From Draconibacterium orientale (lineage in GTDB: Bacteria; Bacteroidota; Bacteroidia; Bacteroidales; JAADGE01): a stretch of DNA of 48,842 bases. The translations under genes were made by a program, and so were the position numbers. Shown here one piece after another: positions 1,725-27,920 of this stretch. The stretch is from assembly GCA_020721645.1 (NCBI GenBank), contig DYMH01000006.1:1-48842 (forward strand). The letters run 5' to 3'. The notes under the pieces are model-generated. The model had not been told where the DNA came from. It ran no database searches and worked only from the letters and a program-made list of their open reading frames with translations. Within the stretch, counting starts at the first letter, position 1, and each line of letters begins with the position of its first letter.

Positions 1725-1728
1725 ACTG

Positions 1729-3019: not shown

Positions 3020-3024
3020 GCGTA

Positions 3025-4420: not shown

Positions 4421-4481
4421 GTGTTTAATCACTGCCGAGCCGATAAACCCTGCACCGCCGGTGATGGGGATTTTTTTTCAT
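4421..4481 (-). repeat. Epimerase 5' stub, copy 4 (frameshifted)
   Basis: ATG, an A8 run, then IPITGGAGFIGSAVIKH; ATG lies 3 nt after the stop of the DUF4143 remnant. Confidence 0.88.
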
Positions 4482-4484
4482 GTT

Positions 4485-5205: not shown

Positions 5206-5602
5206 TGTATTTATTGATACAAATATTTTGGTTTATTTCGCAACTGATAAAACCGAAAAACGAGATATAATATTAACTAAACTTGCTGAATGTGAGTATA
5301 GTTACATTTCAATTCAGGTTTTAAACGAATTCAATAATAGTTGTTTCAAAAAATCTTTATTGAAACCAGATGAAATTGAATTTGCATTAAACGAATATAC
5401 AAAAATGTTCAATGTTGTTATACTGAATATCGCAACGATTATTGATGCATTGCGATTAAAACAAAAATACGGCTATTCGTATTACGACAGTTTGATAATC
5501 TCAACAGCATTGCAAAATGATTGTAAAATACTTTATTCGGAAGATATGCAACATACACAGAAAATTGATGATAAATTGACAATTCTAAATCCATTCAAAT
5601 AA
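5195..5602 (+). CDS. PIN-domain (VapC-like) toxin
   Basis: FIDTNILVY, QVLNEF, YYDSLII, LYSEDMQH acidic motifs. Confidence 0.92.
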   Translation: MKDNVFIDTNILVYFATDKTEKRDIILTKLAECEYSYISIQVLNEFNNSCFKKSLLKPDEIEFALNEYTKMFNVVILNIATIIDALRLKQKYGYSYYDSLIISTALQNDCKILYSEDMQHTQKIDDKLTILNPFK

Positions 5603-12754: not shown

Positions 12755-14079
12755 TTATTAAAATCTTTAAAATTCATTACACCTGTATTTATGTTAATAG
12801 TAACGAGTTTTGTTTTTGAAATCGGAAATGTGTCAATTTCATTTACTGTATTCTCTCTCTGTATTTCAATAATTTTGTTAATATTTATATCGGGGAGATA
12901 TATTTTATCAAAGCCTTTTAATAAAGGGGTTGCCGGATATTTTTTTCTAATTTTACAATATAACGGAATCAGCTTTGTATTATCAAAATCTAATTGCATT
13001 GATAAAGCGACAACTTCGCAAAACTCAAGCGAATGTGCATTGAAATTATGAAACATTAAGTATTGGTATGCCTTATTTTTTTGTATGTATGTTAATCCTT
13101 TTTTTATTATTCCCTTTATTTTGGTGATCATTTTTTCATCACTCAAATTTGGTTGTTTCAAACTTAATATACAATATTTTGTTAGATCATTTAAGTTGAT
13201 TAAATGGTAATGATAATTGGTACCGGACAATTTAACTTCTCTTTCGGTATAACCATCGTTGTGAAAAATAAATGGACTTTTGTATTTTTCTTTTAGTCGT
13301 ATTTTGTATAAATACTTTTCAAATATCCAATTAATGTGTTTATATTTCCTTTTTCTTTCATTCATAAACAACAGAATGCGAAATAAAGGGTCAATATATT
13401 TAAAATAAAAATTCACCTTTTGGTTGATAAAGAAATGAAGACATTCAACTCCTTCTTCAAAATCAAATTTTAATTTTCTTATTAATTCTTCGTAACCAGA
13501 GCAATCTTTAAGTACTAAATAGGTGTTAAGAGTGTGGAGATGGGTGTTGAAAATTAACATGTTATTCTCAGATTCGCCTATTATACTTTGTGTAAAATGA
13601 TAATCATGATAAGGCAGGAACGATCTTTCTTGTGAATCATGAAAAAACCATTTTCCCATTGTAAGATCTTCCTTAAAACTAAAATGGTAAATAATGAGTT
13701 TTTGAATAAGGTCATCGCTGAAAAAGACACCTTCCTTTCTAAGTGCCACAATAAGCTGAATTAATGTTGCAGTAAACCTTAAATGAGTTTCATTTTTCCC
13801 CCAACTATCGTGTATAAAATAATCATCATTTTCCGATAGTCTTTTTTGAATTGATAAAGTTAATTTTTTTAAGAAATACTTTATGTCAGAATTATATACA
13901 GATTGAAAAAAAAGCAAGGCGTGAAACAGACCGTATGCATCCATTTCCATGAGCTTGCCCGTTCGCCTATCTATAAGAAACTCATTATCGAAAAATAATT
14001 CGAAATTATCCGGGAAATTAAGTTCGGTAAATGAGCCGGGTATATTGAATTTGAAGTTTTTGTAGTCTTGTAAATTCAT
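12745..14079 (-). CDS. Hypothetical 444-aa protein in the polysaccharide locus
   Basis: Long ORF overlapping both neighbours; helical, with FNTHLHTL and YHYHLINL motifs. Confidence 0.75.
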   Translation of the reverse strand: MNLQDYKNFKFNIPGSFTELNFPDNFELFFDNEFLIDRRTGKLMEMDAYGLFHALLFFQSVYNSDIKYFLKKLTLSIQKRLSENDDYFIHDSWGKNETHLRFTATLIQLIVALRKEGVFFSDDLIQKLIIYHFSFKEDLTMGKWFFHDSQERSFLPYHDYHFTQSIIGESENNMLIFNTHLHTLNTYLVLKDCSGYEELIRKLKFDFEEGVECLHFFINQKVNFYFKYIDPLFRILLFMNERKRKYKHINWIFEKYLYKIRLKEKYKSPFIFHNDGYTEREVKLSGTNYHYHLINLNDLTKYCILSLKQPNLSDEKMITKIKGIIKKGLTYIQKNKAYQYLMFHNFNAHSLEFCEVVALSMQLDFDNTKLIPLYCKIRKKYPATPLLKGFDKIYLPDININKIIEIQRENTVNEIDTFPISKTKLVTININTGVMNFKDFNNCL

Positions 14080-14867
14080 TTAATATTAAAAAAGTTCCGA
14101 TAAAACTTACTTTTAAGAAACTTGCTGTATCGCTGGATAAGCCTTGAATTCCTGTATATTAAAAGCTCTGAAAGATTTTTTTTATAAGTCAAATAAAAAT
14201 CAAGTTCCTCAGGGAAGTACTTTGATATTATTTTTTGTCTTTCATTTTCTTTATTAAGTAATTGTGTTTGGCTTACACCATTCAAATCAAAATAGACACA
14301 GTTTATATCAAGGTATTCATATGTGCATTTTTCGATTATGATTTTTTTTATAAAGAAATCATAATCAGATAGTATCTTGTAGTTTTCGTCGTAAAGGGTG
14401 TTTTTAAGTAAATCTGATTTTAAATACGTTGATGGGTGCCCGATATTACTTGTCAGAAAGAATGTTAATGAAAGTTTAGCCGGAAATTTCCAATTCTTAG
14501 CATGTGTGCGTACATTACAATACATTAAATCCTTATTTTGATAAGTTTCGAAAATTGCCCTCAGGACTCCTTCATCAACCAACCAATCCCCCGAGTTCAA
14601 AAACTGACAATACTCCCCCTTTGCAACCTTAATGCCTTTGTTCATGGCGTTATAAATGCCTTTATCCGGTTCGGAAACCCAATAGATGATTTTATCGGCG
14701 TATTGTTTTATGATTTCTACACTGCCGTCAGTACTTCCGCCATCTATGATGATATATTCATAATCCGTAAAAGTTTGAGAAATAACACTTTCGATGGTCT
14801 TTGTCAGACCTTCAGCATTGTTGAGGTTTACTGTAATTATGGAGAGTTTGGGCGTATTAGAGTTCAT
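14076..14867 (-). CDS. GT2 glycosyltransferase (WcaE/WfgS-like)
   Basis: KLSIITVNLNN, IDGGSTDGS, WVSEPDKGIYNAMNKG, FLNSGD, SDYDF. Confidence 0.95.
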   Translation of the reverse strand: MNSNTPKLSIITVNLNNAEGLTKTIESVISQTFTDYEYIIIDGGSTDGSVEIIKQYADKIIYWVSEPDKGIYNAMNKGIKVAKGEYCQFLNSGDWLVDEGVLRAIFETYQNKDLMYCNVRTHAKNWKFPAKLSLTFFLTSNIGHPSTYLKSDLLKNTLYDENYKILSDYDFFIKKIIIEKCTYEYLDINCVYFDLNGVSQTQLLNKENERQKIISKYFPEELDFYLTYKKNLSELLIYRNSRLIQRYSKFLKSKFYRNFFNIK

Positions 14868-14912
14868 TGAGAAATTGCTTGTTTTTATCTATACCTTTTT
14901 TTCCGATAACAT

Positions 14913-15014
14913 TTACTTGTTGTCGAGTGTTGAAAAGCATTCGATGCAGCTAAAACTCTGCAAGTTTTTTAGAAGTTCCAGTGTACTTGCTTCGATTGTA
15001 TTTTTGTATAGCAT
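14913..15014 (-). pseudogene. Truncated AbiEii toxin start
   Basis: MLYKNTIEASTLELLKNLQS matches MLYYKTIEQDTLDILKKIQS of 21302-21922, then stops at codon 34. Confidence 0.8.
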
Positions 15015-15274
15015 TTAAATTCATTTTTAGGGATATTCAAAAATATGCTTGCAAAGTTTAATGTTTTTTTATCTAAAAATCCGGCTTTAACGATTTCTTG
15101 TTTAATCGTTTCTACGCCATAAAATTGTATAACAATCTGTAAATCTTGCAAATTGCCTCGCGTAAAAACACGTTCGATAATTGTTGTTTTGTTCTTCTGA
15201 AAATCTAAACTTTTTCTGTCTATATCCCAAAAAAGGTGTTCGGATAAATTGTTTATATCAAATTCTATGTTCAT
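14969..15274 (-). CDS. DUF6922-like antitoxin (orphan)
   Basis: HLFWD...IIERV..RG...D; paralog of 21877-22182 and 24925-25209. Confidence 0.8.
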   Translation of the reverse strand: MNIEFDINNLSEHLFWDIDRKSLDFQKNKTTIIERVFTRGNLQDLQIVIQFYGVETIKQEIVKAGFLDKKTLNFASIFLNIPKNEFKCYTKIQSKQVHWNF

Positions 15275-15393
15275 AAAACAGATTTTATTTTTAAAATACC
15301 TGTAAAATATTGACTAACAACGCTTTCAATGGTTTTCTGCAAGCCGGCAGCGTTGTTGAAGTTTACTGTGATTATGGAGAGTTTGATGAGCAT
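15271..15393 (-). repeat. GT2 (KLSIITVN) 5' stub; 40-aa mini-ORF whose TGA overlaps the antitoxin ATG
   Basis: MLIKLSIITVNFNNAAGLQKTIESVVSQYFTGILKIKSVL*. Confidence 0.9.
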
Positions 15394-15469
15394 GAAGAAA
15401 AATTGATTTAGATATTCGGATTACTACTTGTGGAATAATTCTTTTTAAGGGATTTTTCAATACCTTAAT

Positions 15470-17402: not shown

Positions 17403-18704
17403 TTAAAAAATTTCATTGAAAACTTTATTTGCATATTCAAATGAAGAAAAATCGACAACTTGTTTTACAGAATTGTCTGAGTATTTGTTGTATGCTTCTT
17501 TCGATAATTCAAAAATCAATTTTATCCCAAATGCCAAATCATGCGAATCTTTTAATTTTGCTTTATATCCATTATAATTATTAATAACCATATTGTTTAC
17601 AATCCCCATATCAAAACCAACGACGGGTGTTCCGCATGCCAAGGCTTCCGTTACCATCATCGGTCCGGAATCTTCTATTGAAGTATTTATAAAAACATCA
17701 GACGCTTGATATAATAGTGATAACAAACGGTAGTCTTTAATGTAGTTGATATGTTTTTTTTGAAAGGGTATATCGTTAAAAGAATTTGAAATTTTTGTTG
17801 AAACTATTAATACTTCTATTGTATCTCTTTGCTCATCAGTAATGTTTTTATTAAGAATATTTAATGCGTCTATTAAATATTCAAAACCCTTTCTTTTTTC
17901 AATAGCATTTTGGCACCCCATTAGCATATAGAACTTATTTTTGTCTAAATTAAAAATATCTTTAGCATAAGTCCTATTTCTGTTATGCATAATCTTTGTA
18001 TCAATTAAGCTGTTTATATTAAATATTGTAGTTTGATTTTTATAGATTTTAGATAAAGAGGCTTGTTGTATAGTCCAACCCGAACCGGTTAAAATCTTAA
18101 AATTGCCTAATTTTGCATTTTTGTATTTAGTTTCAAAATTGATTTGTGCCAGCTTTTTTTTGTCTTTATTTATTATAGCAGGACAATTTTCATCGCAACC
18201 GGTAATGTATCCTTTACAATCCCATGCATAATGACAACCGCCGGTAAAATGATTCATGTCCACCGTAATGTTATATACAGCAGCCTTTGAAAATTGTTGA
18301 ATATACAATAAATCAGTAGAATTCATAAAGCCATATGTTATTCCGCTAAAAATATATTCAGGTATAAATCCAATTTGTTTTATAACTTGATCAACAGAGA
18401 TATTGACACTTGTTTCGTCTTTACTAAAAAAATAAAAATTAGAATCGAACGAAATATTATTTTTTTTTGGCGGCTGGAAGTAATTTTTTAGTTTAATCCA
18501 AATACGAATAAGTAAACTTCTTTTTATATTATTAATTGGCTGATATTGAATGACAATATTATCATGTTGTGTTTTGTGTTTAACTAACATTGCTACTATA
18601 TGACCCTTATCCACAAATAATTGTGCAACCTTAAAAATATATTCAGCAGCTCCGTTTGTGTCGCTTGTAGAAAGTAATAATATTCGTTTCTTTATATCTC
18701 CCAT
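17403..18704 (-). CDS. GT4 glycosyltransferase (WcaC-like)
   Basis: FTGGCHY, RKG, EALACGTPVVGF. Confidence 0.9.
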   Translation of the reverse strand: MGDIKKRILLLSTSDTNGAAEYIFKVAQLFVDKGHIVAMLVKHKTQHDNIVIQYQPINNIKRSLLIRIWIKLKNYFQPPKKNNISFDSNFYFFSKDETSVNISVDQVIKQIGFIPEYIFSGITYGFMNSTDLLYIQQFSKAAVYNITVDMNHFTGGCHYAWDCKGYITGCDENCPAIINKDKKKLAQINFETKYKNAKLGNFKILTGSGWTIQQASLSKIYKNQTTIFNINSLIDTKIMHNRNRTYAKDIFNLDKNKFYMLMGCQNAIEKRKGFEYLIDALNILNKNITDEQRDTIEVLIVSTKISNSFNDIPFQKKHINYIKDYRLLSLLYQASDVFINTSIEDSGPMMVTEALACGTPVVGFDMGIVNNMVINNYNGYKAKLKDSHDLAFGIKLIFELSKEAYNKYSDNSVKQVVDFSSFEYANKVFNEIF

Positions 18705-19939
18705 TCTACGGGTATTTTAAAATAACCATTTTCTCTATCGCCTTCCTTAAATTCTTCTTGTGTTAAATTAATAATGTTTAGATTTATTTTGTCGCTCGGT
18801 AAATCTAATATTTTAATTTTAGGAATATCTAATGCCAAACCGATTTTATATAAATTTGCAATTAATAGATTACCTGGTATTTTAATAGTCCAAGTTTTAA
18901 TTCCTATAAAATCCAACTGTCTTCTGTTTATAAATATTAAATTATCGTACTTATCTTGTATTGAAAAATTCAAACGTGCGTTTTCTTGATAATAGTCGTT
19001 TCTAAGGGTTATGTTTACAAAAATCTCTTGCTCTGCGAAATATTCAATCACAACATTCTTATCTTTATCTTTCAGTTCAACTTTAATTATTTGTGTCGCT
19101 TTACTCTCATCTTGTTTGTAGAATATAGTTGAAATATTTTGGTCAGTTGAGTTTGTATTTAAATATTTAGTTAAAGTTTCGTCTATTCCCCCTTCAAAAA
19201 TCAGTTTTCCGTTTTGCAAAACCACGCCCTTGTTACACAACGCCTTTATACTCCCCATATTATGACTCACAAACAACACAGTCCTCCCCCCTTCCCTCGA
19301 AACATCCTGCATTTTTCCGATGGCTTTTTTCTGAAATTCGGCGTCGCCCACTGCAAGCACTTCGTCCACCACCAAGATTTCGGGTTCTAAATGGGCAGCA
19401 ACGGCAAAGGCGAGGCGAACGTACATTCCGCTGCTGTAACGTTTTACGGGTGTGTCCACGTATTTGGCTACGCCGGCAAAGTCGATAATTTCGTCGAATT
19501 TGGATTTTATTTCTCGTTTAGTCATGCCGAGGATTGCCCCGTTAAGGAAAATATTTTCTCTACCTGTCAATTCGGGGTGAAAGCCGGTGCCTACTTCGAG
19601 CAAACTTGCAATACGACCGTTTACTTTTATGCTGCCGGTGGTTGGTCCGGTAACGCGGGAGAGTATTTTGAGCAAAGTTGATTTTCCTGCTCCGTTTTTG
19701 CCAATGATTCCGAGTATTTCGCCTTTTTTTACCTCTAAGTTAATGTCTTTGAGAGCCCAAACCAAGTCGCCGTCCACAGTATCGAGGCGGTTTGTTTGCC
19801 CGATTTTAAGTGTCGGATCTTCCTTGCCGCGAATTTTTGCAAACCATCGGTTGAGGTCGTGGCTGAGTGTTCCGGTACCTATTTGCCCGAGGCGGTACTG
19901 TTTGGAAAGGTTTTCTATTTTAATGGCAAGGTCGGACAA
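18692..19939 (-). CDS. wzt: Polysaccharide ABC transporter ATP-binding protein with Wzt C-terminal domain
   Basis: GKNGAGKST, GFHPELTGREN, YSSGM, VDEVLAVGD, VSH; TTG start. Confidence 0.95.
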   Translation of the reverse strand: MSDLAIKIENLSKQYRLGQIGTGTLSHDLNRWFAKIRGKEDPTLKIGQTNRLDTVDGDLVWALKDINLEVKKGEILGIIGKNGAGKSTLLKILSRVTGPTTGSIKVNGRIASLLEVGTGFHPELTGRENIFLNGAILGMTKREIKSKFDEIIDFAGVAKYVDTPVKRYSSGMYVRLAFAVAAHLEPEILVVDEVLAVGDAEFQKKAIGKMQDVSREGGRTVLFVSHNMGSIKALCNKGVVLQNGKLIFEGGIDETLTKYLNTNSTDQNISTIFYKQDESKATQIIKVELKDKDKNVVIEYFAEQEIFVNITLRNDYYQENARLNFSIQDKYDNLIFINRRQLDFIGIKTWTIKIPGNLLIANLYKIGLALDIPKIKILDLPSDKINLNIINLTQEEFKEGDRENGYFKIPVEWEI

Positions 19940-19973
19940 AATAATTATGAATTATGAGTTATGGATGGTGGGG

Positions 19974-19981
19974 CAAAAATA
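19974..19981 (-). promoter_or_regulatory. TAnnTTTG promoter box upstream of wzt (repeated at 21010, 23841 and 26941)
   Basis: TATTTTTG about 30-35 nt upstream of TTG in all four copies. Confidence 0.6.
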
Positions 19982-20040
19982 GTAAAAATTTTGTTTATTG
20001 TCGTTTCTGCGATGAAGTCTTATGGTAAAATTGTGTCTGT

Positions 20041-20457
20041 TTAATGGATGAACGGATTTATTATTTGTAATCTGTTCTCAATAATTTGTTGATGTTGCAT
20101 GTCTTCTGTGTATAGGATTGAGCAATTATTTTGTAATGCAGCAGAAATAATTAAACTATCCCAATAAGAAAAACCGTATTTTTCTTTTATTTTTAAACAC
20201 AGTTTTATGTCAGAATAATTTAACGGAGTAACGTTAAATAATTTAGATATTTCAATGATATTGTTCTTAATATTTTTGTGTTCAATTTTATTTTTAAACA
20301 GAACTGAATAAAATTCGTTGATAACTTGTACACTTACAAAAAATGTGTTTCCTAAGTTAAGAGAAAACAGCTCTTTAATCTTTTTTTGTTTGTCATTATT
20401 CTGTAGAATGTATCCATAAACAAGAATATTTGTATCAATAAAAATATTATCTTTCAT
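20041..20457 (-). CDS. PIN-domain (VapC-like) toxin
   Basis: FIDTNILVY, QVINEF, WDSLII, LYTEDMQH; homolog of 5195-5602. Confidence 0.92.
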   Translation of the reverse strand: MKDNIFIDTNILVYGYILQNNDKQKKIKELFSLNLGNTFFVSVQVINEFYSVLFKNKIEHKNIKNNIIEISKLFNVTPLNYSDIKLCLKIKEKYGFSYWDSLIISAALQNNCSILYTEDMQHQQIIENRLQIINPFIH

Positions 20458-20701
20458 AAAGTTCGTCCCGAGAATAAGTTATAAAATTGATACATTGAAT
20501 GGGATTGTTGATAAAATTAGGTATTTTTTTTAATGGTTTTTCGTTTTTGGATTTTTCGGACACGGAAGTAATTTTAATGTCATATTTAAAAATAATGAAT
20601 TCCAATAAATTAGTAAATTCCTTTTCAGCATCCTTATCTAATTTGGAAAAGAAAAGTTGCGGATTTTCTTTCAGCATGTTGATATCAATAGTTTTATTCA
20701 T
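20447..20701 (-). CDS. Putative antitoxin of the PIN toxin
   Basis: 84 aa ending SRDELYER, overlaps PIN start; TAAATTTG box at 20718-20725. Confidence 0.75.
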   Translation of the reverse strand: MNKTIDINMLKENPQLFFSKLDKDAEKEFTNLLEFIIFKYDIKITSVSEKSKNEKPLKKIPNFINNPIQCINFITYSRDELYER

Positions 20702-20782
20702 GGTCGGTTTTTTAATGCAAATTTACGACGAAAATTTAAATAAAAAACATCATAATAATTTTTCCCTTTTTAAAAACGGTGT

Positions 20783-21031
20783 CTTTGAGAGTTCGTACAT
20801 ATTCGCCGTCCCCGGTATCGAGACGGTTGGTTTGTCCGATTTTAAGTGTCGGGTCTTCCTTGCCGCGAATTTTTGCAAACCATCGGTTGAGGTCGTGGCT
20901 GAGTGTTCCGGTACCTATTTGCCCGAGGCGGTACTGTTTGGAAAGGTTTTCTATTTTAATGGCAAGGTCGGACAAAATAATTATGAATTATGAGTTATGG
21001 ATGGTGGGGCAAAAATAGTAAAAATTTTGTT
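20783..21031 (-). repeat. wzt 5' stub with promoter and UTR, copy 2
   Basis: Near-identical to about 19745-19995; first 54 aa identical, similarity ends after LKD. Confidence 0.95.
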
Positions 21032-21104
21032 TTGAGCGAGGGTTTTATAAGAAACTGTTTTCTTTTCATTAAACAGAGAATATTCTCCTTTTGTCTGCAA
21101 AATT

Positions 21105-21296
21105 GTGTTTGTCGGGTTCTGAAACCCACTAAGCAAGTTGGTCGGCATGTTTTTCGATGATTTCGCAGCTGCCATCGGTGCTGCTGCCGTCGATGATGAT
21201 GTACTCGAAAGTGGTAAAAGTTTGCGATACAACGCTTTCTATGGTCTTTTGCAAGCCGGCGGCGTTGTTGAGGTTTATTGTTGAGAGTTTCGGCAT
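21105..21296 (-). repeat. GT2 (KLSIITVN) 5' stub, long version
   Basis: MPKLSTINLNNAAGLQKTIESVVSQTFTTFEYIIIDGSSTDGSCEIIEKHADQLA*WVSEPDK; ATG lies 5 nt after the toxin stop. Confidence 0.92.
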
Positions 21297-21301
21297 TAAA
21301 T

Positions 21302-21922
21302 TCATTTATTTTTAATAAAATCTGTAAGCGTATTTTCAATAAATATTTTTACTTCGTTCCAATCTGTCGGAATAAGCATATCCGGTTGTTCGTCTTCATC
21401 TGCATCTTTAAAATATGTGAGACTTCTTAAAACTAAAAAAATAGAACCTTCGGGATATTTTTGCATATAAAAATCTAATATTTCTTTTAGATTATATCGT
21501 TTCAATAAAAAGTATAAATCTATAAAATCTTTTTTTGTTCCTCTGCCTGTAATTGCGGCAATTTTCATTGCAGCAATATCTTTTATACCGGCGAGTAATA
21601 AATTATCTTCAGTAATTGCATTTTCTAACCATGTATAATGGTAATTAACAAAATCTACTTTAATATTATTAACAGAAAAGATATTAATATTTGTTGAATT
21701 TTTAAGAACAGTTATTTTTCCTACCTTTTCTAATTCTTTGGAAAAGGTAATAAAATCATTTTCAATCAGTCCAAAAAAATCTAAATCTATTGATTTTCTG
21801 TGTCCTATTTGTAGAGCCAATGCTGTTCCGCCTACAAGTCTTAATTTAGAAAACTCTGTAATGCTCTGTATTTTTTTTAATATATCCAGTGTGTCCTGTT
21901 CAATTGTTTTGTAGTATAGCAT
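21302..21922 (-). CDS. AbiEii-family nucleotidyltransferase toxin
   Basis: LVGGTALALQIGHRKSIDLDF, AAMK..AI..RG.KKDF.D. Confidence 0.92.
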   Translation of the reverse strand: MLYYKTIEQDTLDILKKIQSITEFSKLRLVGGTALALQIGHRKSIDLDFFGLIENDFITFSKELEKVGKITVLKNSTNINIFSVNNIKVDFVNYHYTWLENAITEDNLLLAGIKDIAAMKIAAITGRGTKKDFIDLYFLLKRYNLKEILDFYMQKYPEGSIFLVLRSLTYFKDADEDEQPDMLIPTDWNEVKIFIENTLTDFIKNK

Positions 21923-22182
21923 AAGAATTTTTCTTTTGGTATTTTAGATAATAATGAAATAAAAGTTATGGATTTTTCATCCAAATCTCTGGCATTCATG
22001 GCGATTTTCGCTATTTCATCTATTCCGTAGTAATTGTATATAATATCCCAATCGTTTATTAAGCCGTAATCAAGAACATTTGTAATAATCGTTTTCTTAC
22101 TTCTTTCAAAGTCGAGATTATTTCTATTTACGTCCCAAAACAGATGTTTTGAAAAATTGTTTATATCAAATTCTTTGCTCAT
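21877..22182 (-). CDS. DUF6922-like antitoxin
   Basis: HLFWD motif; ATG at 22182 gives 101 aa, collinear with 14969-15274. Confidence 0.8.
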   Translation of the reverse strand: MSKEFDINNFSKHLFWDVNRNNLDFERSKKTIITNVLDYGLINDWDIIYNYYGIDEIAKIAMNARDLDEKSITFISLLSKIPKEKFLCYTTKQLNRTHWIY

Positions 22183-22206
22183 AAAATTGATTTTATTTGT
22201 AATTTC

Positions 22207-22303
22207 CTGTAAAAATTTGTATAGCAATGATTTCAATGGTTTTTATCAGTCCTTCGGCATTGTTAAGGTTTACGGTGATTATTGAGAGTTTTGGGGTATG
22301 AAT
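22207..22303 (-). repeat. GT2 5' stub (start codon degraded to ATT)
   Basis: IHTPKLSIITVNLNNAEGLIKTIEIIAIQIFTG. Confidence 0.9.
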
Positions 22304-22310
22304 AAGTAAA

Positions 22311-22922
22311 TTAAAAATTTAGTGCAGTTTCGGTTAAGAAGTTTTTGATTTCGTTTTCAGTGGGTTTTTCTTTCAAAAATTCAACAGGTTCCGAATGGTC
22401 CATATCTTCAAAATAACAAAGTTGCGCTCGGAAAAGTTTTTCGGAAAACAAGTCGCCGTAAATAGCACTAGCTTTTTCAGATATTTGATTTACAGTATGA
22501 TAACTTTTAAGTATGTAGTATAAATCAACATAATCTTTCCATTTCGATCTTCTGCCTAATGCGTAAGATTTCATGGCTGCCAATGTTAATAAGTCGGGCA
22601 ATTTGAACACGTCTTCGTATTTGCAGGGCGTATCTATGTGGAATGGGTATTGGAAAAAAGTAAGTTTTACTTTGTTCAGTATCAGGTTTAATTGTTCGGA
22701 TACACGACGTGTAACTGTGTGGTTGTATCCGGACTCTGAAATTTTTGAGATAATCTTCGGGATTTTGAGGTCTGTTTTTTTGAACATGTCAAAATCAATG
22801 GATTGTCGGTGTCCGATATGCAAGGCAATTGCCGTGCCGCCGACTAAGTAAAATTCGCGTTTAAAGCCGGACATCAGCGGAAGTAATTGTACTTGTTTTT
22901 GATTAAATATCTCGCTATGCAT
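22311..22922 (-). CDS. AbiEii-family nucleotidyltransferase toxin
   Basis: LVGGTAIALHIGHRQSIDFD, AAMK.YALGRR.KWKDYVD. Confidence 0.92.
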   Translation of the reverse strand: MHSEIFNQKQVQLLPLMSGFKREFYLVGGTAIALHIGHRQSIDFDMFKKTDLKIPKIISKISESGYNHTVTRRVSEQLNLILNKVKLTFFQYPFHIDTPCKYEDVFKLPDLLTLAAMKSYALGRRSKWKDYVDLYYILKSYHTVNQISEKASAIYGDLFSEKLFRAQLCYFEDMDHSEPVEFLKEKPTENEIKNFLTETALNF

Positions 22923-23187
22923 GGTTTTTAAAATAGAGTGAAAAAAGGTGATGTATTTCGGGATAAAAATTTCCTATTTTTCTATCCTGCATTGAAAAAA
23001 ATACCGATGCTACGGTTTTTAATCCTAAGATGTGAAATAATTTTCTTATTGTTGCCATTTCGCCGTAATTCAAAATAAATTCCACCAAAACTTCGTGGCT
23101 GATATTTTGTTTTTCCGCTTCGGGAGTATACCAAAATAAATCGGCGTTTTCGGCAATAAATTGTTTTATTTCGGGGGTGTTTTGCAT
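22915..23187 (-). CDS. Putative antitoxin (LFWY motif)
   Basis: ATG at 23187 (MQNTPEIK); overlaps the toxin start; TATTTTTG box at 23232-23239. Confidence 0.75.
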   Translation of the reverse strand: MQNTPEIKQFIAENADLFWYTPEAEKQNISHEVLVEFILNYGEMATIRKLFHILGLKTVASVFFSMQDRKIGNFYPEIHHLFSLYFKNHA

Positions 23188-23260
23188 TGATTTTATTATT
23201 ATTGCGAGCTTGGGTACTCGAAAGTATCCCGCAAAAATACGAAATTTTATGTTTTTTTTC

Positions 23261-23666
23261 TTAATCAAAACTCTTTATTTGGATTAAAATATCGCGAAAT
23301 GTTTCTCCGAATTTGATGTTGTTGGTTTTATAATCTGAAATTTCGGATTTTGGTTTGTAGTTTTCGAGAATTTTCGCAAGTTGGACGGTATTTTCGGGTT
23401 CAAAGAAAACCACATTTCGGATGATTTGTTCGCGATGCACCCGAATGTCCGATAAAATAAGCGATTGATTCATCGCTTTTACATCTTCAACCACCGTACT
23501 CCAACCTTCAAAAAGAGACGGTTGAATGATGGCTTGCGAATGTTTCATGAGTGCCAATTGGTCGATTCTGTCAATAAATCCGAGAAAACGAACATTGTCT
23601 TGAATATTATTTTGTAAAACATAGTTTTGCAATTCGTTGAAAAATTCAGGGTTTCTGTAATCGGAT
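23261..23666 (-). pseudogene. 3' fragment of a GT4 glycosyltransferase, copy B
   Basis: DYRNP...FLGFI...QPSLFEGWSTVVED...SDI.VHRE; no N-terminal domain, fused to a wzt stub. Confidence 0.85.
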
Positions 23667-23667
23667 T

Positions 23668-23862
23668 ATTTGCCCGATCTTAAGTGTCGGGTCTTCCTTG
23701 CTGCGAATTTTTGCAAACCATCGGTTGAGGTCGTGGCTGAGTGTTCCGGTATCTATTTGCCCGAGGCGGTACTGCTTGGAAAGATTCTCAATTTTAATGG
23801 CAAGGTCGGACAAAATAATTATGAATTATGAATGGTGGGGCAAAAATAGTAAAAATTTTGTT
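23668..23862 (-). repeat. wzt 5' stub, copy 3
   Basis: TTG at 23813; identity to the wzt start ends at PTLKIGQ. Confidence 0.95.
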
Positions 23863-23902
23863 TTGCAGGGATTTTATTTTTGTTTTTACATCTTCCCATT
23901 AT

Positions 23903-24170
23903 TAATGCGAATCAAGAGTCGCATTATTAAAAGTTGAATATGTTTCATAGTGTGAAGTATGAATTGCCGGCGGAGTGATTTCTTTTATTTATATCGGAGT
24001 CTCCTCCGGCTAATTTCTTGATATTTATCGAATTTGTAATTTAGTATACCGGAAAAAACAATTGTTTCTAAAACTAATTCCATCCGCCGTTAGCTTGTTC
24101 AGCTTTGCAATACACCGGCATAAATGCCGGAGATAGTCAATACAATGATTTTAACTCTTGATTCGCATTA
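23903..24170. mobile_element. MITE-like non-coding element with 17-bp terminal inverted repeats
   Basis: taatgcgaatcaagagt (23903-23919) and actcttgattcgcatta (24154-24170) form a perfect IR; internal hairpins; no ORF. Confidence 0.6.
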
Positions 24171-24206
24171 TTAATCTTTCATTATCATGCGTATTGGTTC
24201 GGAAAA

Positions 24207-24302
24207 CGAAAAGATTTGTGCAAGCACGCTGTCGATTGTCTTTTTAAGACCCTTGGCATTGTTAAGGTTTACGGTGATTATTGAGAGTTTGGGGTGGTGC
24301 AT
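24207..24302 (-). repeat. GT2 5' stub
   Basis: MHHPKLSIITVNLNNAKGLKKTIDSVLAQIFS. Confidence 0.92.
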
Positions 24303-24331
24303 TGTTTTATTTGATTCGGAAAATGAGTTCT

Positions 24332-24955
24332 TTATAGTTTATTTTTAAGAACACTATCGCTTATTGTTTTTTTTATCTTATTCCACGTCAATTGAGGGTC
24401 TTTTATCATGACCGGCCAGTCGGCTAAATCAACATCATCAAACCACACCAAACTTTTCAACACGTTAATATCGTTGGTTTGATTGTATTTTGTTTTGTAA
24501 AAACGGATCATTTCCGGTAATTGTATTTGCTGTAAAATATAAAAAATATCAATAAAATCCTTAACTCTTTGTCCGTTAGTGCAAACCGCATTCAATTTCA
24601 TAGCCGATATATCTTGTATCGATAACATTTTTATTTTTTCCGAAACATGCAAATCCGCTATATGTGGATATCGGTGTGCCAAAATATCAACCTGTACATT
24701 GTTTATACTGCCTTTTAATGTATTTGCCGCACTATAAAAGATTTTGAAATTAAAATCGTTTGAAATTTTTTCGAAAATATCTTGAGCATCAAAATTGAAA
24801 TTACAAAACAAATCGATATCAACAGATCTTCTGTGGCCCAGCCGGAGTGCTAATGCAGTTCCGCCTACCAGGTAAAATCCTTCAAGATATGGTTTCTCTT
24901 GTAATTTGATAATTAGGTCAAATGTTAATTGATCGACTGTTTTTTTGAATAGCAT
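24332..24955 (-). CDS. AbiEii-family nucleotidyltransferase toxin
   Basis: LVGGTALALRLGHRRSVDIDLF, SAMKLNA...G.R.KDF.D. Confidence 0.92.
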   Translation of the reverse strand: MLFKKTVDQLTFDLIIKLQEKPYLEGFYLVGGTALALRLGHRRSVDIDLFCNFNFDAQDIFEKISNDFNFKIFYSAANTLKGSINNVQVDILAHRYPHIADLHVSEKIKMLSIQDISAMKLNAVCTNGQRVKDFIDIFYILQQIQLPEMIRFYKTKYNQTNDINVLKSLVWFDDVDLADWPVMIKDPQLTWNKIKKTISDSVLKNKL

Positions 24956-25209
24956 TTGAATTGTTTTTTTGGAATTTTGAAATATAAGGAAAAAAAATTT
25001 AAAGTTTTGTCATCTAAAAAATTCAAACAACAAATCGTATTCATAATCGTTTCTTTTCCGTAAAAATTCATAATCAGCGAAAGTTCATCTGAATTCCCGA
25101 AATTTATCACACGCTCTATAATTAATCGTTGATTTTTTTGGGCATCCATTTTCGAAATATCGATATCCCAAAAATATACAGGGTTTATATGTTGCAATAT
25201 ATTTTCCAT
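24925..25209 (-). CDS. DUF6922-like antitoxin
   Basis: YFWD...LIIERVINFG; overlaps the toxin; TAATTTTG box at 25236-25243. Confidence 0.82.
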   Translation of the reverse strand: MENILQHINPVYFWDIDISKMDAQKNQRLIIERVINFGNSDELSLIMNFYGKETIMNTICCLNFLDDKTLNFFSLYFKIPKKQFKCYSKKQSIN

Positions 25210-25316
25210 TTCCGAATTTTCTTTTTAGCCTTTTACAAAATTAATGCTTTTTGGTGTAATATGAATTTCAGAGCGTTTCTATTTTGCAGAGAATTGTTGT
25301 ATTCCTTTTTCGGAAA

Positions 25317-25401
25317 AGACTAACACCGCGAGCATCGCATTTTTTTGCAATCCTTTGGCATTGTTGAGGCTTACGGTGATTATGGAGAGTTTGGTGGGCA
25401 T
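25317..25401 (-). repeat. GT2 5' stub
   Basis: MPTKLSIITVSLNNAKGLQK; ATG lies 7 nt after the toxin stop. Confidence 0.9.
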
Positions 25402-25408
25402 AAGTAAA

Positions 25409-26010
25409 TTAAAAATTTAGTGCTGTTTCAGTTAGAAACGTTTTGATTTTTTCATCTGATGGCTTTTCGTTTAAGTAAATAACGGGTTCGGAATTGTCTA
25501 TATCTTCGTAAAACGATAATTGTTCTAAAAGCAATTTAGCATTAAAAAAATTTCCGAAAACGATATCTGTATTGTCGATTATTTGATTTAAAGAGAAATG
25601 ATTTTTCAAAATAAAATATAAATCGACATAATCTTTCCATTTTGCTCGTCCGCCGAGAGCATAAGTCATCATGCTTGCTAAATTGAGCAAAGAAGGTAGT
25701 TTTATGATATTATTAAAATCAGTATCGGCCTCAATTTTGTGCGGAAATTGGAAAAAGGTCAATTTGACAGAATTAACAATTAGATGCATTTGGTCAAAAG
25801 CTTCATATATTACACGATAGGTATTATTATAGTATTTTTTATTTGAGTTCTTTTAATTTCGTCATACGAGAACAAATCAAAATCAATTGATGAACGATGT
25901 CCCAGATACAGTGCAATTTCTGTTCCACCGACAAGATAATATTTATTTGAAAATTGGTTGATTAACGGGAGTAATGCTTTTTGTTCTTCAGACAGGATAA
26001 ATATTTGCAT
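25409..26010 (-). pseudogene. Split AbiEii toxin (frameshift near 25810)
   Basis: N-half MQIFILSEEQ...GGTEIAL..GHRSSIDFD (26010-25810) and C-half ...RAKWKDYVD...FLTETALNF are in different frames; paralog of 22311-22922. Confidence 0.88.
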
Positions 26011-26275
26011 GGCGTTTAAAATATAAATTGAAGAAATGAACGGTACTTTTATGGTAATTGACTCTTGAATTACTGACCTGTTTAAAAAATATTTTGGCAA
26101 CAGCATCTATTCCAAGAATTAGAAAAAGTTTTTTTAGTGATAATATTGTTCCGTAATTCAAAATAAATTCCACCAAAACTTCGTGGCTGATATTTTGTTT
26201 TTCCGCTTCGGGAGTATACCAAAATAAGTCCGAATTTTCGGCAATGAATTGTTTTATTTCAGGGGTGTTTTGCAC
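25988..26275 (-). CDS. Putative antitoxin (LFWY motif)
   Basis: First 42 aa nearly identical to 22915-23187; overlaps the toxin pseudogene; GTG start. Confidence 0.7.
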   Translation of the reverse strand: MQNTPEIKQFIAENSDLFWYTPEAEKQNISHEVLVEFILNYGTILSLKKLFLILGIDAVAKIFFKQVSNSRVNYHKSTVHFFNLYFKRHANIYPV

Positions 26276-26365
26276 GGATCCGAATATTTTGCATGGCTTA
26301 TCGGCAAATTATTGTTATGCTTTATGCAAAGATATGAAATTTTCCTTTTACCCCTTATCAAAACC

Positions 26366-26759
26366 CTATATTTGTTCTAAAATATTGCGAAATGTTTCGC
26401 CGAATTTGGTGATGTTGGTTTTATAATCCGAAATTTCGGATTTGGGTTTGTAGTTTTCTAAAATTTGTGCAAGCTGTTTGGCATTTTCAGGCTCAAAGAA
26501 ATCGACATTTCGGTTAATTTGTTCGCGATGCACCCGAATGTCCGATAAAATAAGCGATTGATTCATTGCTTTTGCATCTTCTACAACAGTACTCCAACCT
26601 ACAAAAAGAGACGGCTGAATAATTGCTTGCGAATGTTTCATGAGTGCCAATTGGTCGATTCTGTCAATAAATCTGAGAAAACGAATATTGTCTTGAATAT
26701 TATTTTGTAAAACATAGTTTTGCAATTCGTTGAAAAATTCAGGGTTTCTGTAATCGGAT
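26366..26759 (-). pseudogene. 3' fragment of a GT4 glycosyltransferase, copy A
   Basis: Close duplicate of 23261-23666; LFEGW is changed to LFVGW. Confidence 0.85.
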
Positions 26760-26760
26760 T

Positions 26761-26958
26761 ATTTGCCCGATCTTAAGTGTCGGGTCTTCCTTGCTGCGAA
26801 TTTTTGCAAACCATCGGTTGAGGTCGTGGCTGAGTGTTCCGGTATCTATTTGCCCGAGGCGGTACTGCTTGGAAAGATTCTCTATTTTAATGGCAATGTC
26901 GGACAAAATAATTATGAATTATGAATTATGAATAGTGGGGCAAAAATAGTAAATTTTA
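26761..26958 (-). repeat. wzt 5' stub, copy 4
   Basis: TTG at 26906; same truncation junction as copy 3; three ATTATGA heptamers in the UTR. Confidence 0.95.
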
Positions 26959-27192
26959 TTTGGTTTGAAAGGATAATAAAAATTCACTATGCGTTCTTTT
27001 TATTGTCGTTGAGATTATTTCTGCTGATTATCAAATTAATATCGTTAATGCAAAATCAATTTACATTTTTTTATTGGGAGCTATATCGTTTTCAATACTG
27101 TTTTCGGTTGCAAATATTTTTTTAAGTGCGTATTCAGTATAATGCGTGAAATAGCAGAGTGCTTTATATTTCTTAGCGACTGCATGCGTGTT

Positions 27193-27918
27193 TCATGTAA
27201 AAACACTTCTCAAAACTTCGAGCGATTTTAATTTCCCGCTTTTTTCGAGATGTAGATTATAGTATTCGATAAAAAAATCGAGGATTTCGTTGCGTTCGTA
27301 TGTCGATATTGAGAGTAAATGCGTGGAGTTGAGTAAGATATTGAAAAGCGAGTGAAGCAAGCGACTTTTTTCGGCATTTAAAAAATGAAGGTGTTGTGGT
27401 ATTCCGACAATAAATTTTCCTGAAATCATATCGAAAATTTGCCGTGAATCGGAATAGTTGTTTTCGGGAAAAAAACCTAAATGTCGGCAAAATTGAAGCA
27501 AAAAAATAATATGAAAATTAGCATACGATTCTTCCAACAAATCAAATATTTGTATCGACTTTTCGATAAAATTGAAACAGCGTGCATCGGCTTCGTTTTC
27601 TTTGAGTGCCCGGTCTATGATTTCGGCAAGAAAAAAGGCGATTGTTGTTTTTTGAATCGAATTGGGTAAGGAGTGTAAAGGCAGTGATACTGTGTATTCC
27701 TTTGCTTTTTGTAAACCAACTTCGGGCTTGTAATATGCTGTTAAATCGACAAGAAAGAGAGGTTGTAAAAGATTCGATTTCGATTTATTTTTCTTTGACC
27801 CGATTCCATAGATAAGATACGCTTGTTTCCCGAATTTTTCGGTGTATATGCGAACAATCATTGAATTATCGGCATATTTTTGTCGATACAGAACGATGCC
27901 TTTTGTTTGATGTAGCAT
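27193..27918 (-). CDS. recO: DNA repair protein RecO
   Basis: TKGIVL...Y....IV.IYT..FG N-terminus, LQPL, LKSLEVL C-terminus; follows porZ as is usual in Bacteroidota. Confidence 0.92.
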   Translation of the reverse strand: MLHQTKGIVLYRQKYADNSMIVRIYTEKFGKQAYLIYGIGSKKNKSKSNLLQPLFLVDLTAYYKPEVGLQKAKEYTVSLPLHSLPNSIQKTTIAFFLAEIIDRALKENEADARCFNFIEKSIQIFDLLEESYANFHIIFLLQFCRHLGFFPENNYSDSRQIFDMISGKFIVGIPQHLHFLNAEKSRLLHSLFNILLNSTHLLSISTYERNEILDFFIEYYNLHLEKSGKLKSLEVLRSVFT

Positions 27919-27920
27919 TT

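Follow-up and report, generated by a model that had tools for sequence, protein, structure and literature searches.

AbiE is a type IV toxin-antitoxin, or abortive infection, system made up of AbiEi and AbiEii. Toxin-antitoxin cassettes are also carried by chromosomal integron arrays, and orphan toxin-immunity modules sit behind CDI/Rhs genes. In O-antigen and capsule loci, gene remnants occur at recombination junctions. For restriction-modification genes, insertion with long target duplication has been described as a further way of moving (Nobusato et al. 2000, ref. 37 in PMC2853133; Furuta et al. 2010, PMC2853133). In the cases described there, the target duplications are long and variable, in many cases include a start or stop codon, and can serve as repeats for amplification (PMC2853133). 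Addiction gene complexes amplify through flanking long direct repeats (ref. 84, as summarised in the Discussion of PMC2853133).

Here we describe the interval that separates recO from a sugar-export gene in an uncultured member of Bacteroidales, in which small toxin-antitoxin cassettes are stacked among leftover copies of gene starts. The locus lies where the core genome (recO) borders on a wzt-type polysaccharide locus, within a 48,842-nt stretch that was analysed as a whole (the window). We consider it reasonably probable that recombination built this segment as a stack of small addiction/defence cassettes, in which a block was doubled via 5' copies of wzt and received an interior from a diverged allele. 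Like the long-target-duplication inserts described in PMC2853133, these are small addiction/defence gene sets without a mobility gene, flanked by direct repeats of >30 bp and variable length that in many cases reach across the start or stop codon of a neighbour, which remains intact. They differ from the cases described there in cargo (AbiEii-type pairs, VapBC, PDC-S01 or Schlafen-like genes instead of restriction-modification genes), in host (Bacteroidales), in being nested and stacked ~10 times in one sugar locus, and in that the older repeats differ mainly at third codon positions. The head-to-tail block copies, bounded by one long repeat and holding addictive cargo, resemble the amplification of addiction complexes summarised in PMC2853133. 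Unlike in that process, the copies are non-identical, with a mosaic interior that holds different cargo lineages, so that amplification alone is insufficient.

Truncated glycosyltransferase and transporter pieces at the module borders of a hypervariable sugar locus are also reminiscent of O-antigen and capsule loci, except that here the pieces bracket selfish cassettes instead of sugar genes, and are many, repeated and partly common in their end points. With integron arrays and CDI/Rhs orphan modules the locus shares addictive or toxin-immunity modules separated by repeated linkers that permit recombinational exchange. However, it has no integrase or attC, its linkers are the 5' ends of unrelated housekeeping sugar genes, and its modules are complete rather than tips of a larger gene. 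As in AbiE, the toxins belong to the AbiEii nucleotidyltransferase family (PF08843) with a GG...DxD-type motif, and have a small, upstream, overlapping partner; yet they are short (~205 aa) and are paired, in place of AbiEi, with DUF6922 or an unannotated relative. Weak PADLOC AbiEii matches (1e-5 to 1e-8) were obtained for the toxins of both units. We regard the locus as a rich example of the known, poorly understood spread of such genes without an insertion enzyme of their own.

A repeat search and self-BLAST of the window detected two tandem units, A and B, of 2.75 kb each, with a period of 3,093 nt (range 3,088-3,098) and a spacer of 340 nt. All features of both units are on the minus strand, as are the other features given below. 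Each unit reads, in order, a fusion of a wzt 5' stub with a family-4 glycosyltransferase (GT4) tail, a small antitoxin and AbiEii, a GT2 stub, DUF6922 and AbiEii, and another GT2 stub. The longest match between the units pairs 23034-23872 with 26122-26974 (86.7% over 860 nt, E = 0); weaker ones pair 22240-22583 with 25341-25681 (70.7%) and 21773-21985 with 24806-25018 (67%). Pfam matches place AbiEii at 21302..21922, 22311..22922 and 24332..24955 and, weakly, at 25810..26106, DUF6922 at 21877..22236 and 24925..25209, and Glycos_transf_1 (C-terminal part only) at 23261..23632. These searches bear out an earlier note on this DNA, which had described two 2.75-kb tandem units of equal architecture; its inventory has to be amended in that there are four wzt 5' copies instead of two, and toxin 1A is split in two frames. 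The inter-unit spacer (23871..24206) consists of pieces of short repeats found elsewhere at contig ends of the assembly.

The four wzt 5' copies are A, B, stub 2 (20780..21032) and that of the intact gene at 19939. Intact wzt (415 aa; 18692..19996 with its 57-nt upstream region) is the source type of the stubs. Copy A (26751..26963; stub ORF 26739..26906) comprises 57 nt of upstream sequence and the ~50 first wzt codons, and ends at the fusion junction; its coding part differs from intact wzt at 10/150 nt and from copy B at 2/150. Copy B (23658..23870) ends at the same junction, resembling the intact gene and stub 2 in the upstream 57 nt and copy A in the coding part: at six upstream sites where A is private it agrees with the intact gene and stub 2, and at eight coding sites it agrees with A. 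Judged from these ~14 sites, stub B is a hybrid. Stub 2 is 95% identical to the intact gene, and its 3' end point is unlike that of A and B. Between it and intact wzt lie a VapB-like gene and a PIN-domain toxin (20041..20701; Pfam PIN 6e-14), a stub-VapBC-stub order also found in G007. According to the alignment, the fusion junction GGGCAAATAATCCGATTACAG is present in units A and B and absent from the other two wzt 5' copies; the 31-nt junction had 0 matches in metagenome contigs.

Past the junction, GT4 tail A (26366..26725) is an open frame with the last ~119 codons of a family-4 glycosyltransferase. Tail B (23261..23632) is an open frame of 123 codons that covers positions 63-154 of the 172 in Glycos_transf_1; its protein relatives in genome contigs are full-length genes (381/388 aa) at 2/2 loci. 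The tails are 87.8-89.1% identical in amino acids and differ at 35/354 nt, distributed 8/8/19 over codon positions (dN/dS 0.20). The 13 amino acid differences compare with 24.9 +/- 2.4 under neutral simulation, and 0/20,000 simulations gave a value as low. Just 2 of the 35 differences are in the first 100 nt, with a breakpoint ~100 nt into the tail. Given this distribution and the predominance of third positions, the tails acquired most of their differences in genes that still worked, and the junction region was copied recently. Units A and B agree completely over a stretch of ~200 nt that begins at wzt nt 25, shortly after the start, and runs to tail nt 38. The near-identity of the previously proposed 'conserved scaffold' is thus a recent recombination tract and not a conserved functional frame. 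Deeper in the GT4 tail the copies differ by 13%, mainly at third codon positions.

The basic cassette consists of a DUF6922-type protein of ~90-120 aa followed by an overlapping AbiEii-type nucleotidyltransferase of ~205 aa; it ends at the toxin stop codon, after which comes a copy of the first 20-65 GT2 codons. From family and gene order, it is presumed to be a toxin-antitoxin or abortive-infection pair. In unit A, antitoxin 1A (25988..26275, 95 aa) has no Pfam match or annotated family and is distantly DUF6922-like (hhalign probability 57-71% to DUF6922 relatives). The AbiEii-like toxin 1A (25409..26106) occupies two frames (25810..26106 and 25409..25789), and the frame break recurs in a 0-difference contig of run X3. 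The second pair consists of the DUF6922 antitoxin 2A (24925..25209; PF21956, 2.3e-19) and the intact AbiEii-like toxin 2A (24332..24955, 207 aa; PF08843, 3e-15). Unit B codes for antitoxin 1B (22915..23268, start probably 23187), whose 36 related protein clusters all lack a name or Pfam domain, the DUF6922 antitoxin 2B (21877..22236; 6.1e-18), and two intact AbiEii-like toxins, 1B (22311..22922, 203 aa; 2.9e-11) and 2B (21302..21922, 206 aa; 2.8e-13).

The strong divergence of toxins and second antitoxins between units, pointed out earlier, amounts to 33% amino acid identity for Tox2, 35% for DUF6922 and 51-54% for the Tox1A pieces against Tox1B. On a toxin tree of 24 rows, the four toxins need 4/4 separate placements: Tox1B is sister to G004, a protein from another genus (79% amino acid identity; support 100/100), and Tox2A and Tox2B are in different clades (94/79 and 95/95). 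Antitoxins 1A and 1B ('LFWY') share 41/42 residues (98%) in the N-terminal half and 19/48 (40%) in the C-terminal half, where 1A is closer to G012 and G017 (24-25/49). Antitoxin 1A is thus a mosaic with a breakpoint in mid-gene.

Four GT2 stubs of 45-200 nt match the 5' end, at 14867, of an intact GT2 gene (14076..14867) with 71-88% identity. They are A1 (25341..25408), A2 (24207..24296; start codon and ~30 codons), B1 (22208..22299), whose junction into DUF6922 is common to a stub at 15.3 kb, and B2 (21108..21306, ~200 nt; 71% over 208 nt to 14661-14868). By hand count, stub A2 has 19 differences from intact GT2, 4/2/13 by codon position; over the stub-versus-gene comparisons, partly hand-counted, third positions account for 63/108 differences. 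The predominance of third-position differences in the older bracket repeats points to one copy having arrived together with the cassette instead of being duplicated in place. A smaller excess is expected even after in-place duplication, because the intact copy remains under selection.

The stub-cassette-stub pattern spans the whole 27-kb sugar locus, with ~10 occurrences on the contig. All off-diagonal repeat pairs of the window (29/29) fall below 27,000 and 0 in the 21.8-kb housekeeping part; such repeats bracket 8/11 selfish cassettes on the contig. In family relatives, repeats lie around DUF6922 cassettes in 11/21 loci, and non-cassette repeats of 38-117 nt form the brackets in 6/18 regions. 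Repeats were found around 9/28 loci of PDC-S01 genes, bracketing the gene in 7 of these, compared with 2/28 and 0 for the controls, queA and its paralog. Among metagenome loci, 3/7 distinct sequences have cassette-bracketing repeats (96, 257 and 33 nt). Two bracket repeats in relatives (L080, L084) are 98.6-100% identical, and in-place target duplication would fit these just as well. This pattern, a copied gene end without an integrase, which also occurs in other genera and in metagenomes, matches insertion with long target duplication. Its generality on the contig and in relatives, and its match to a described mode of gene movement, had been missed before.

According to our preferred reading, cassettes would enter beside either end of a gene and leave that end in duplicate, most likely through single-crossover integration of circularised DNA carrying the cassette and a bit of the donor's neighbouring gene; no circular cassette form was seen. 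An earlier composite block would have consisted of the wzt promoter region and ~50 codons, joined through a deletion to the final third of a GT4 gene and followed by two cassettes. Two such blocks would have come to lie in tandem when wzt 5' copies underwent unequal homologous recombination, the interior of one, from ~100 nt into the GT4 tail on, deriving from a diverged allele; this would have arrived from another strain in that event or have been exchanged afterwards. A further exchange point would lie halfway through antitoxin 1. This is the order of events we infer for a history that is unrooted. Counter-selection against loss of toxin-antitoxin pairs and the promoter copy supplied by each wzt stub may explain persistence.

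Compared along their length, the units are strongly non-uniform in identity: 98-100% in the wzt stub and junction, 95% dropping to 85% in the GT4 tail, 63-74% in the tail end and intergenic patch, 94% dropping to 85% over the initial ~100 nt of antitoxin 1, and 47-62% in the rest of the cargo. If a 3.1-kb unit had simply been duplicated in place, in tandem, and its toxin and antitoxin genes had then diverged fast under diversifying selection, the equal architecture and junction and a period constant within 10 nt would be accounted for. We consider this extremely improbable, since cargo of 33-54% amino acid identity lies beside noncoding or dead scaffold at 85-100% nucleotide identity, the closer relatives of each toxin are in other genera and not in the sister unit, and the breakpoint inside antitoxin 1 is sharp. 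The non-uniform identity, separate toxin lineages, mosaic antitoxin 1A and hybrid stub B together speak against it. The earlier note had already judged simple duplication insufficient and invoked recombination; the slot phylogeny, for toxins, and the breakpoints within antitoxin 1 and the GT4 tail agree with both. Its second alternative was that two independently acquired, diverged wzt ... GT4-cassette-GT2 loci were stacked by successive locus replacement and both collapsed, leaving cassettes as survivors of dead sugar loci; the junction would have been copied by gene conversion. This is possible, if rather doubtful. The divergence of the GT4 tails under purifying selection, a junction lying within the ~200-nt identical tract, the uncollapsed order wzt ... 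GT4-GT2 retained in the relative G006 and a functional third locus downstream are all in its favour, but it requires a conversion carrying a multi-kb deletion and, alone, leaves hybrid stub B and the single-cassette brackets in relatives (e.g. L080) unexplained. It is a variant of our preferred explanation, and the present data fit refilled slots and stacked loci alike.

It might also be argued that the gene-start stubs are attachment sites of a site-specific, integron-like cassette system whose enzyme is encoded elsewhere. The cassette ends are discrete, stubs B1 and 15.3k have a common junction, and linkers with matching end points precede unrelated cargo: Schlafen-like, AbiEii and GT4-like genes each follow an epimerase-type stub, three in all. 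Nevertheless, such a system is highly improbable: the stubs are ordinary coding sequence, repeats range from 33 to 257 nt over many different target genes, nine inspected insert ends have no common motif, and no integrase or transposase domain was found in 35 of the 39 window ORFs of at least 130 aa (the remaining four: three antisense shadow frames plus one PIN paralog). The tandem itself is unlikely to be an assembly artefact, with A and B from co-existing strains, or A a separate 3.09-kb circle, chained via the identical wzt stub. The assembly does consist of 285 contigs, the repeat graph permits a path closing unit A on itself, and none of the four runs examined had a Logan contig bridging a wzt stub; as ~200 nt are identical between A and B, only the assembly and equal depth speak for the unit order. 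Runs X1 and X3 have 0-difference contigs for the interior of both units at equal depth (~10/10 and 18/18); depth is also equal in the minor strain of X4 (6.6/6.3). Coverage, raised earlier as a check, thus supports both units in three samples of differing total depth, while other strains in X4 and X6 have a one-unit form joining 26358 to 23259 (depth 48 with 101 nt on the shorter side, and 7.8 with 41 nt, respectively). In X4 this form is a third allele, neither A nor B alone, with a TA1 region of 90% identity. In addition, unique sequence is present at the junction of the spacer with stub B and at a 7-nt deletion peculiar to stub B, and genome contamination is 0.24%.

Another GT2 stub, the fifth, lies directly upstream of the intact GT2 gene, together with an orphan DUF6922 gene that has lost its toxin (14868..15401; DUF6922 76 bits at 15092-15247, open frame of 114 aa); both are additions to the earlier note.

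The locus is a nested, partly doubled stack of repeat-bracketed addiction/defense cassettes. By bracket we mean direct repeats, each a copied gene start or end, on both sides of such a small gene set. Insertions of this kind are known, and the nested and doubled stacking is a variant of them. The window is one entire contig (C84) of an assembly of 285 contigs (3.83 Mb, 97% complete, 0.24% contamination). On the minus strand, recO (27918..27193) comes first and is followed by unit A (26963 to about 24207), a spacer of 340 nt (23871-24206), unit B (23870 to about 21108), a third copy of the wzt 5' end (stub 2, 21032-20780), a VapB-like/PIN pair (20701..20041) and an intact wzt preceded by its upstream region of 57 nt (19996..18692). 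Downstream of the intact wzt, also on the minus strand, lies a long series of sugar genes (GT4, GNAT, DegT, GT2 and others). According to Pfam and BLAST, each unit starts with the 57 nt upstream of wzt and ~50 wzt codons, to which the final ~120 codons of a GT4 gene are joined. The first slot holds a gene for a ~90-aa protein without a Pfam family, which overlaps an AbiEii-type gene and is followed by a GT2 5' stub; in the second slot a DUF6922 gene overlaps another AbiEii-type gene, and a second GT2 5' stub ends the unit. The repeat search gave a tandem period of 3,088-3,098 nt, and 3,093 nt was taken as the unit period. Together with the alignment described below, these searches confirm the two units of the same architecture and diverged cargo reported in the earlier note.

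Several features of the surroundings were recorded along the way. The spacer (23871-24206) consists of pieces of short interspersed repeats and contains a palindrome around 23900-23946. Other copies of these repeats are found at or near contig ends (C214, C196, C86, C6, C211, C64 and C226), some with inverted partners nearby (C80, C248 and C226). A PorZ-type gene of type-IX secretion adjoins recO, which fits Bacteroidales. The wzt gene (18692-19996) has no adjoining wzm; the only wzm ortholog of the genome (C204:15523-16395; 67% aa identity to relatives) lies alone among housekeeping genes, and in two relatives (G010 and G006) a gene of ~288 aa is directly upstream of wzt. The 444-aa ORF at 12745-14079 in the sugar locus had no match in Pfam, even with the E limit raised to 10, and no Rfam family reached the gathering score in 19000-28000.

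The reality of the tandem was examined in Logan contigs of sequencing runs. For two samples (runs X1 and X3, of which only X3 is assigned to a study), contigs with 0 differences cover the inside of both units, GT2 stubs included. The break that splits toxin 1A into two frames is likewise present in a 0-difference contig of an independent run. Cargo of A and B has equal depth in X1 and X3 (about 10/10 and 18/18) and again in X4 (6.6/6.3), where the strain identical to the genome is minor. None of the contigs listed bridges the wzt stubs, as is to be expected when A and B have about 200 nt in common without a difference, and a different path is possible, with recO joined to tail B and unit A forming a loop. 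A one-unit form was detected in X4 (depth 48.1, shorter side of 101 nt) and X6 (depth 7.8, 41 nt). It joins an A-like tail end to a B-like antitoxin 1, with 3,098 nt skipped and 6 letters replaced, and is 90% identical to B in the cassette-1 region and 98.4% in the cassette-2 region. Therefore, both the copy number of the block and its allele content vary between strains. Three weaker observations were not relied on. A joint from 21254 to 22257 (loss of cassette 2B) has 23 nt on the shorter side, and high-depth cover is missing in X4 for parts of the GT4 tail. In another X4 contig, of depth 6.3, the toxin 1B end with GT2 stub B1 is connected back to the spacer and stub A2 (24254 to 22256, back 1999); two GT2 stubs may have formed a circle or duplication junction here, or the joint may be a graph artefact of the 36 bases that B1 and A2 share.

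A global alignment of the units, scored per 100-nt window, revealed a non-uniform identity profile, as the earlier note had anticipated. Identity is 98-100% in the wzt stub and shared junction, falls from 95 to 85% along the GT4 tail and reaches 63-74% in the tail end and intergenic patch. It is back at 94%, falling to 85%, in the first ~100 nt of antitoxin 1, beyond which it is 47-62%, near noise for AT-rich DNA, except for a bump of 70-83% at the toxin 1 3' end and GT2 stub. At the protein level, Tox2A and Tox2B are 33% identical, the two DUF6922 proteins 35%, and the two pieces of Tox1A 51-54% identical to Tox1B. The first antitoxins agree at 41 of 42 positions up to the motif ILNYG and at 19 of 48 beyond it; the C-terminal half of antitoxin 1A is nearer to proteins of G012 and G017 (24-25/49), and that of 1B to a G004 protein (35/48). 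This break marks a clean exchange point within the antitoxin 1 gene.

The separate origin of the cargo was also revealed by a maximum-likelihood tree of 24 toxins, namely 20 from other genomes of the family, the three intact ones of the source genome and Tox1A with X at the break (the AbiEii gene at 522..1238 was excluded). The four array toxins occupy four positions, the label of the source genome requiring four changes, which is the maximum. Tox1B is sister to the G004 toxin (100/100), and Tox2A and Tox2B belong to different clades (94/79 and 95/95). As all four toxins need separate placements, the tree rules out a simple duplication with later divergence. The earlier note was right that a simple duplication does not suffice and that recombination was involved; the two routes that it proposed, refilling of slots and stacking of two collapsed loci, are both compatible with the present data.

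At 8 sites of the coding part, wzt stubs A and B have a common state that differs from the one in the intact gene and in stub 2. The 57-nt upstream part behaves otherwise: at 6 sites where A has a state of its own, stub B agrees with stub 2 and the intact gene, and it further has a private deletion of 7 nt. Stub B is therefore a hybrid, its crossover lying close to the start codon, as unequal recombination would produce if an A-type copy upstream paired with another copy downstream. Tandem amplification is represented by head-to-tail units (period 3,093 nt), the same repeat boundary and a hybrid repeat at the joint, but the units are not alike throughout, since identity drops in sharp steps from 100% down to about 50%.

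Between the GT4 tails, 35 of 354 nt are different (8/8/19 across the three codon positions, dN/dS of 0.20). The resulting 13 amino acid differences compare with 24.9 +/- 2.4 when the same 35 changes are placed at random, and none of 20,000 simulations gave a value as low. Only 2 of the 35 changes fall in the first 100 nt: the identical tract of about 200 nt begins shortly after the wzt start (nt 25) and ends at tail nt 38, and just these 2 differences follow up to tail nt 100. The shared fusion junction therefore sits within a recently copied tract, and the remaining tail carries older divergence from the time when the gene was functional. The ‘conserved scaffold’ of the earlier note holds as to near-identity, but what looked like a conserved frame is a recombination tract with older divergence beyond it. 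As for the parent of the tail, both genes in genome_contigs related to the tail B protein are full-length GT4 genes, yet distant (53-64% aa), and the parent itself was not found among these sole matches. In G006, a GT4 gene follows 8 kb after wzt with GT2 directly behind it, and the first 40 residues of this GT2 are 92% identical to the local GT2. Based on this gene order and the full-length GT4 relatives, the ancestral order wzt ... GT4-GT2 is real. The 31-nt fusion junction had no match in metagenome_contigs, and alignment of the wzt upstream region with three relatives revealed no conserved intergenic sequence explaining the -57 boundary.

Repeat bracketing is not confined to the units. All 29 off-diagonal repeat pairs of the window are in the sugar locus, below 27,000, and repeats of 43-253 nt (hence over 30 bp) bracket 8 of the 11 cassettes on the contig. 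Copies of wzt bracket the two units as well as the VapBC pair (95%, 253 nt). Cassette 2A has a bracket of 43 nt (91%), and that of cassette 2B is weak. The orphan DUF6922 gene in front of the intact GT2 (14868-15401) is bracketed by 84 nt (79%), and a PDC-S01-type AAA_14/DUF4143 gene by the GT2 start (83 nt, 76%). Epimerase-type starts (MKKILITGGAGFIGS; 81-91%) flank each of three further cassettes at the contig start, namely a second PDC-S01 gene, a Schlafen-like gene and another AbiEii pair. Three cassettes lack a bracket of their own: the two in the first slots and, on the plus strand, a DUF6364/PIN pair. Of the 39 window ORFs of at least 130 aa, the 35 scanned contain no domain of an integrase, transposase or resolvase, and nine insert ends have no common terminal motif.

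Some of these cassettes deserve a brief description. The orphan DUF6922 gene (76 bits, the best of three in the genome) lies between a GT2 stub and the intact GT2, its toxin deleted. The region 241-4483 holds three unrelated cassettes in a row between epimerase-type starts of ~100 nt: a PDC-S01-type ATPase-nuclease, a Schlafen/AlbA_2-HATPase_c_4 protein and a small gene with AbiEii. Three copies of these starts have a common end point, and no intact epimerase occurs before the contig end. At 4906-5602, on the opposite strand, there is a DUF6364-type antitoxin with a PIN toxin, parts of whose gene have 72-90% DNA identity to the PIN gene at 20041..20457.

Furuta et al. (2010; PMC2853133) describe restriction-modification genes that lack a mobility gene and lie between direct repeats of >30 bp and variable length. 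The target gene stays intact, as a start or stop codon often lies within the repeats; the mechanism is given as unknown. Repeat-flanked complexes can amplify, and a virus-like cycle of invasion, amplification and release was proposed. The present cassettes match insertion with long target duplication, including the lack of a mobility gene in or beside the insert (35 of 39 ORFs scanned), whereas cargo and host differ, and the A/B tandem resembles an amplification step with exchange of alleles superimposed. Where a related genome should show an empty site with one repeat copy, the candidates are the one-unit form of X4 and X6 for the 3.09-kb block and, for a single cassette, just the weak joint from 21254 to 22257. 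An integron array is not a match: no integrase was identified in 35 of 39 ORFs, and in place of attC sites the linkers are coding 5' ends without a common motif, by inspection only. The literature seen in part on toxin-antitoxin genes in O-antigen clusters, AbiEii in Bacteroid* and defense in capsule loci does not feature this pattern. The long-target-duplication pattern has been known since 2000; here, one locus combines about ten nested events, a natural doubling of two cassettes and a one-unit allele in other strains.

The same pattern recurs in relatives. DUF6922 is present in 14 of 25 genomes of the family, and 11 of the 21 loci outside the source genome have direct repeats (E at most 1e-3, >300 nt apart). 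Non-cassette repeats of 38-117 nt bracket the pair in 6 of 18 DUF6922 regions, one more having a repeat of 24 nt; the other repeats are paralogous cassettes side by side. Among PDC-S01 loci, 9 of 28 have repeats and 7 of these bracket the gene, compared with 2 of 28 control loci (queA and a paralog), in neither of which the gene is bracketed. The repeats consist of start or end pieces of a wide variety of genes: GT2 (L080; 138 nt, 98.6%), GT4-like (L059, L066) and deacetylase-like (L033) genes, a methylthiotransferase-like housekeeping gene with its promoter (L077), and 3' ends of DegT-like and other genes (L049, L078, L084). First-slot-type pairs were found at 8 metagenomic loci (7 distinct sequences), and 3 of these 7 sequences are bracketed, by 96, 257 and 33 nt. 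In another genus (L024, G007:C120, 4866-6027), a wzt stub, VapB, a broken PIN gene and a wzt start follow one another; the downstream wzt copy also has just 31 codons, with Schlafen-like remnants behind it.

How the spare gene ends arose can be approached through codon positions. The local GT2 differs from stubs A2, B1 and 15.3k by 4/2/13, 3/5/11 and 6/4/9 changes by codon position, counted by hand on one alignment and not independent, as the reference is common. The 257-nt repeat of L119 has 4/1/11 changes with 72 of 78 residues kept, and the 3 changes between wzt stub 2 and the intact gene are all silent. Pooled with the GT4 tails (8/8/19) and without these three, 63 of 108 differences are at third positions. 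This excess suggests that the spare copy usually comes from another working allele, either as donor flank moved with the cassette or as a relic of an earlier locus; that it is unlike an on-the-spot duplicate that later decayed is suggestive only. It is also possible that both bracket copies derive from the target, duplicated in place: repeats of two relatives are still 98.6-100% identical and some third-position excess is expected in any case, although the 63 of 108 points to copies of two working alleles. Silent-site-biased repeat differences are a signature able to separate an imported flank with single crossover from on-the-spot duplication.

Extending the reading of spare copies as working alleles, we tentatively consider an enzyme-free system, itself rather doubtful, in which one repeat copy is a piece of the donor's neighboring gene that moves with the cassette. 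Toxin-antitoxin and single-gene defense cassettes of Bacteroidales would loop out as circles via the flanking gene-end repeats and re-enter by single crossover at conserved sugar-gene starts (wzt, GT2, epimerase) that provide homology; they could also be doubled or swapped slot by slot. If so, polysaccharide (phage-receptor) loci would be self-renewing defense arrays, and the long-unexplained ‘insertion with long target duplication’ would gain a concrete mechanism; the significance of the locus would rise if this mechanism were shown. The locus also shows that candidate anti-phage genes of Bacteroidales can be stored in the sugar loci that define phage receptors.

Regarding the cargo, the three intact unit toxins exceed the Pfam cut-off for AbiEii (PF08843; 44-57 bits vs 22.5) and keep the GG...D-x-D stretch in their translations; the N piece of the broken fourth is below it (19 bits). 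PADLOC AbiEii matches are weak, and the upstream partner genes have none. Since these partners are DUF6922 or proteins without a Pfam family, and not of AbiEi type, the pairs were not filed as AbiE systems, and we infer that they work like a toxin-antitoxin or abortive-infection pair. NCBIfam had no match for any toxin, antitoxin, PDC-S01-like or Schlafen-like protein. The first-slot antitoxin family comprises 36 unnamed protein clusters. Neither of the two window members is above the PF21956 (DUF6922) cut-off, and 9 of 32 family members match it below threshold (best E 3.5e-4); in profile-profile comparison the probability is 57-71% (E about 1e-4). The first (‘LFWY’) antitoxins are thus likely a distant relative of DUF6922 and not a member. 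Both DUF6922 and this related unannotated family are flagged here as unstudied partners of AbiEii-type toxins; our searches found no literature under the name DUF6922, nor on DUF4143 with polysaccharide in Bacteroid*. DUF4143 is listed among PD-(D/E)XK nucleases in PMC3424549. One PDC-S01 homolog (L069, G031:C27:4586-5764), from a genome 70% complete, has 9 in-frame TGA codons and may be a dead gene or DNA of an organism reading TGA differently.

All four wzt copies keep the 57-nt upstream region, in which TATTTTTG occupies positions 35-42 nt ahead of the start. It fits TAnnTTTG, the -7 promoter consensus of Bacteroides, and each unit may in this way bring its own putative promoter.
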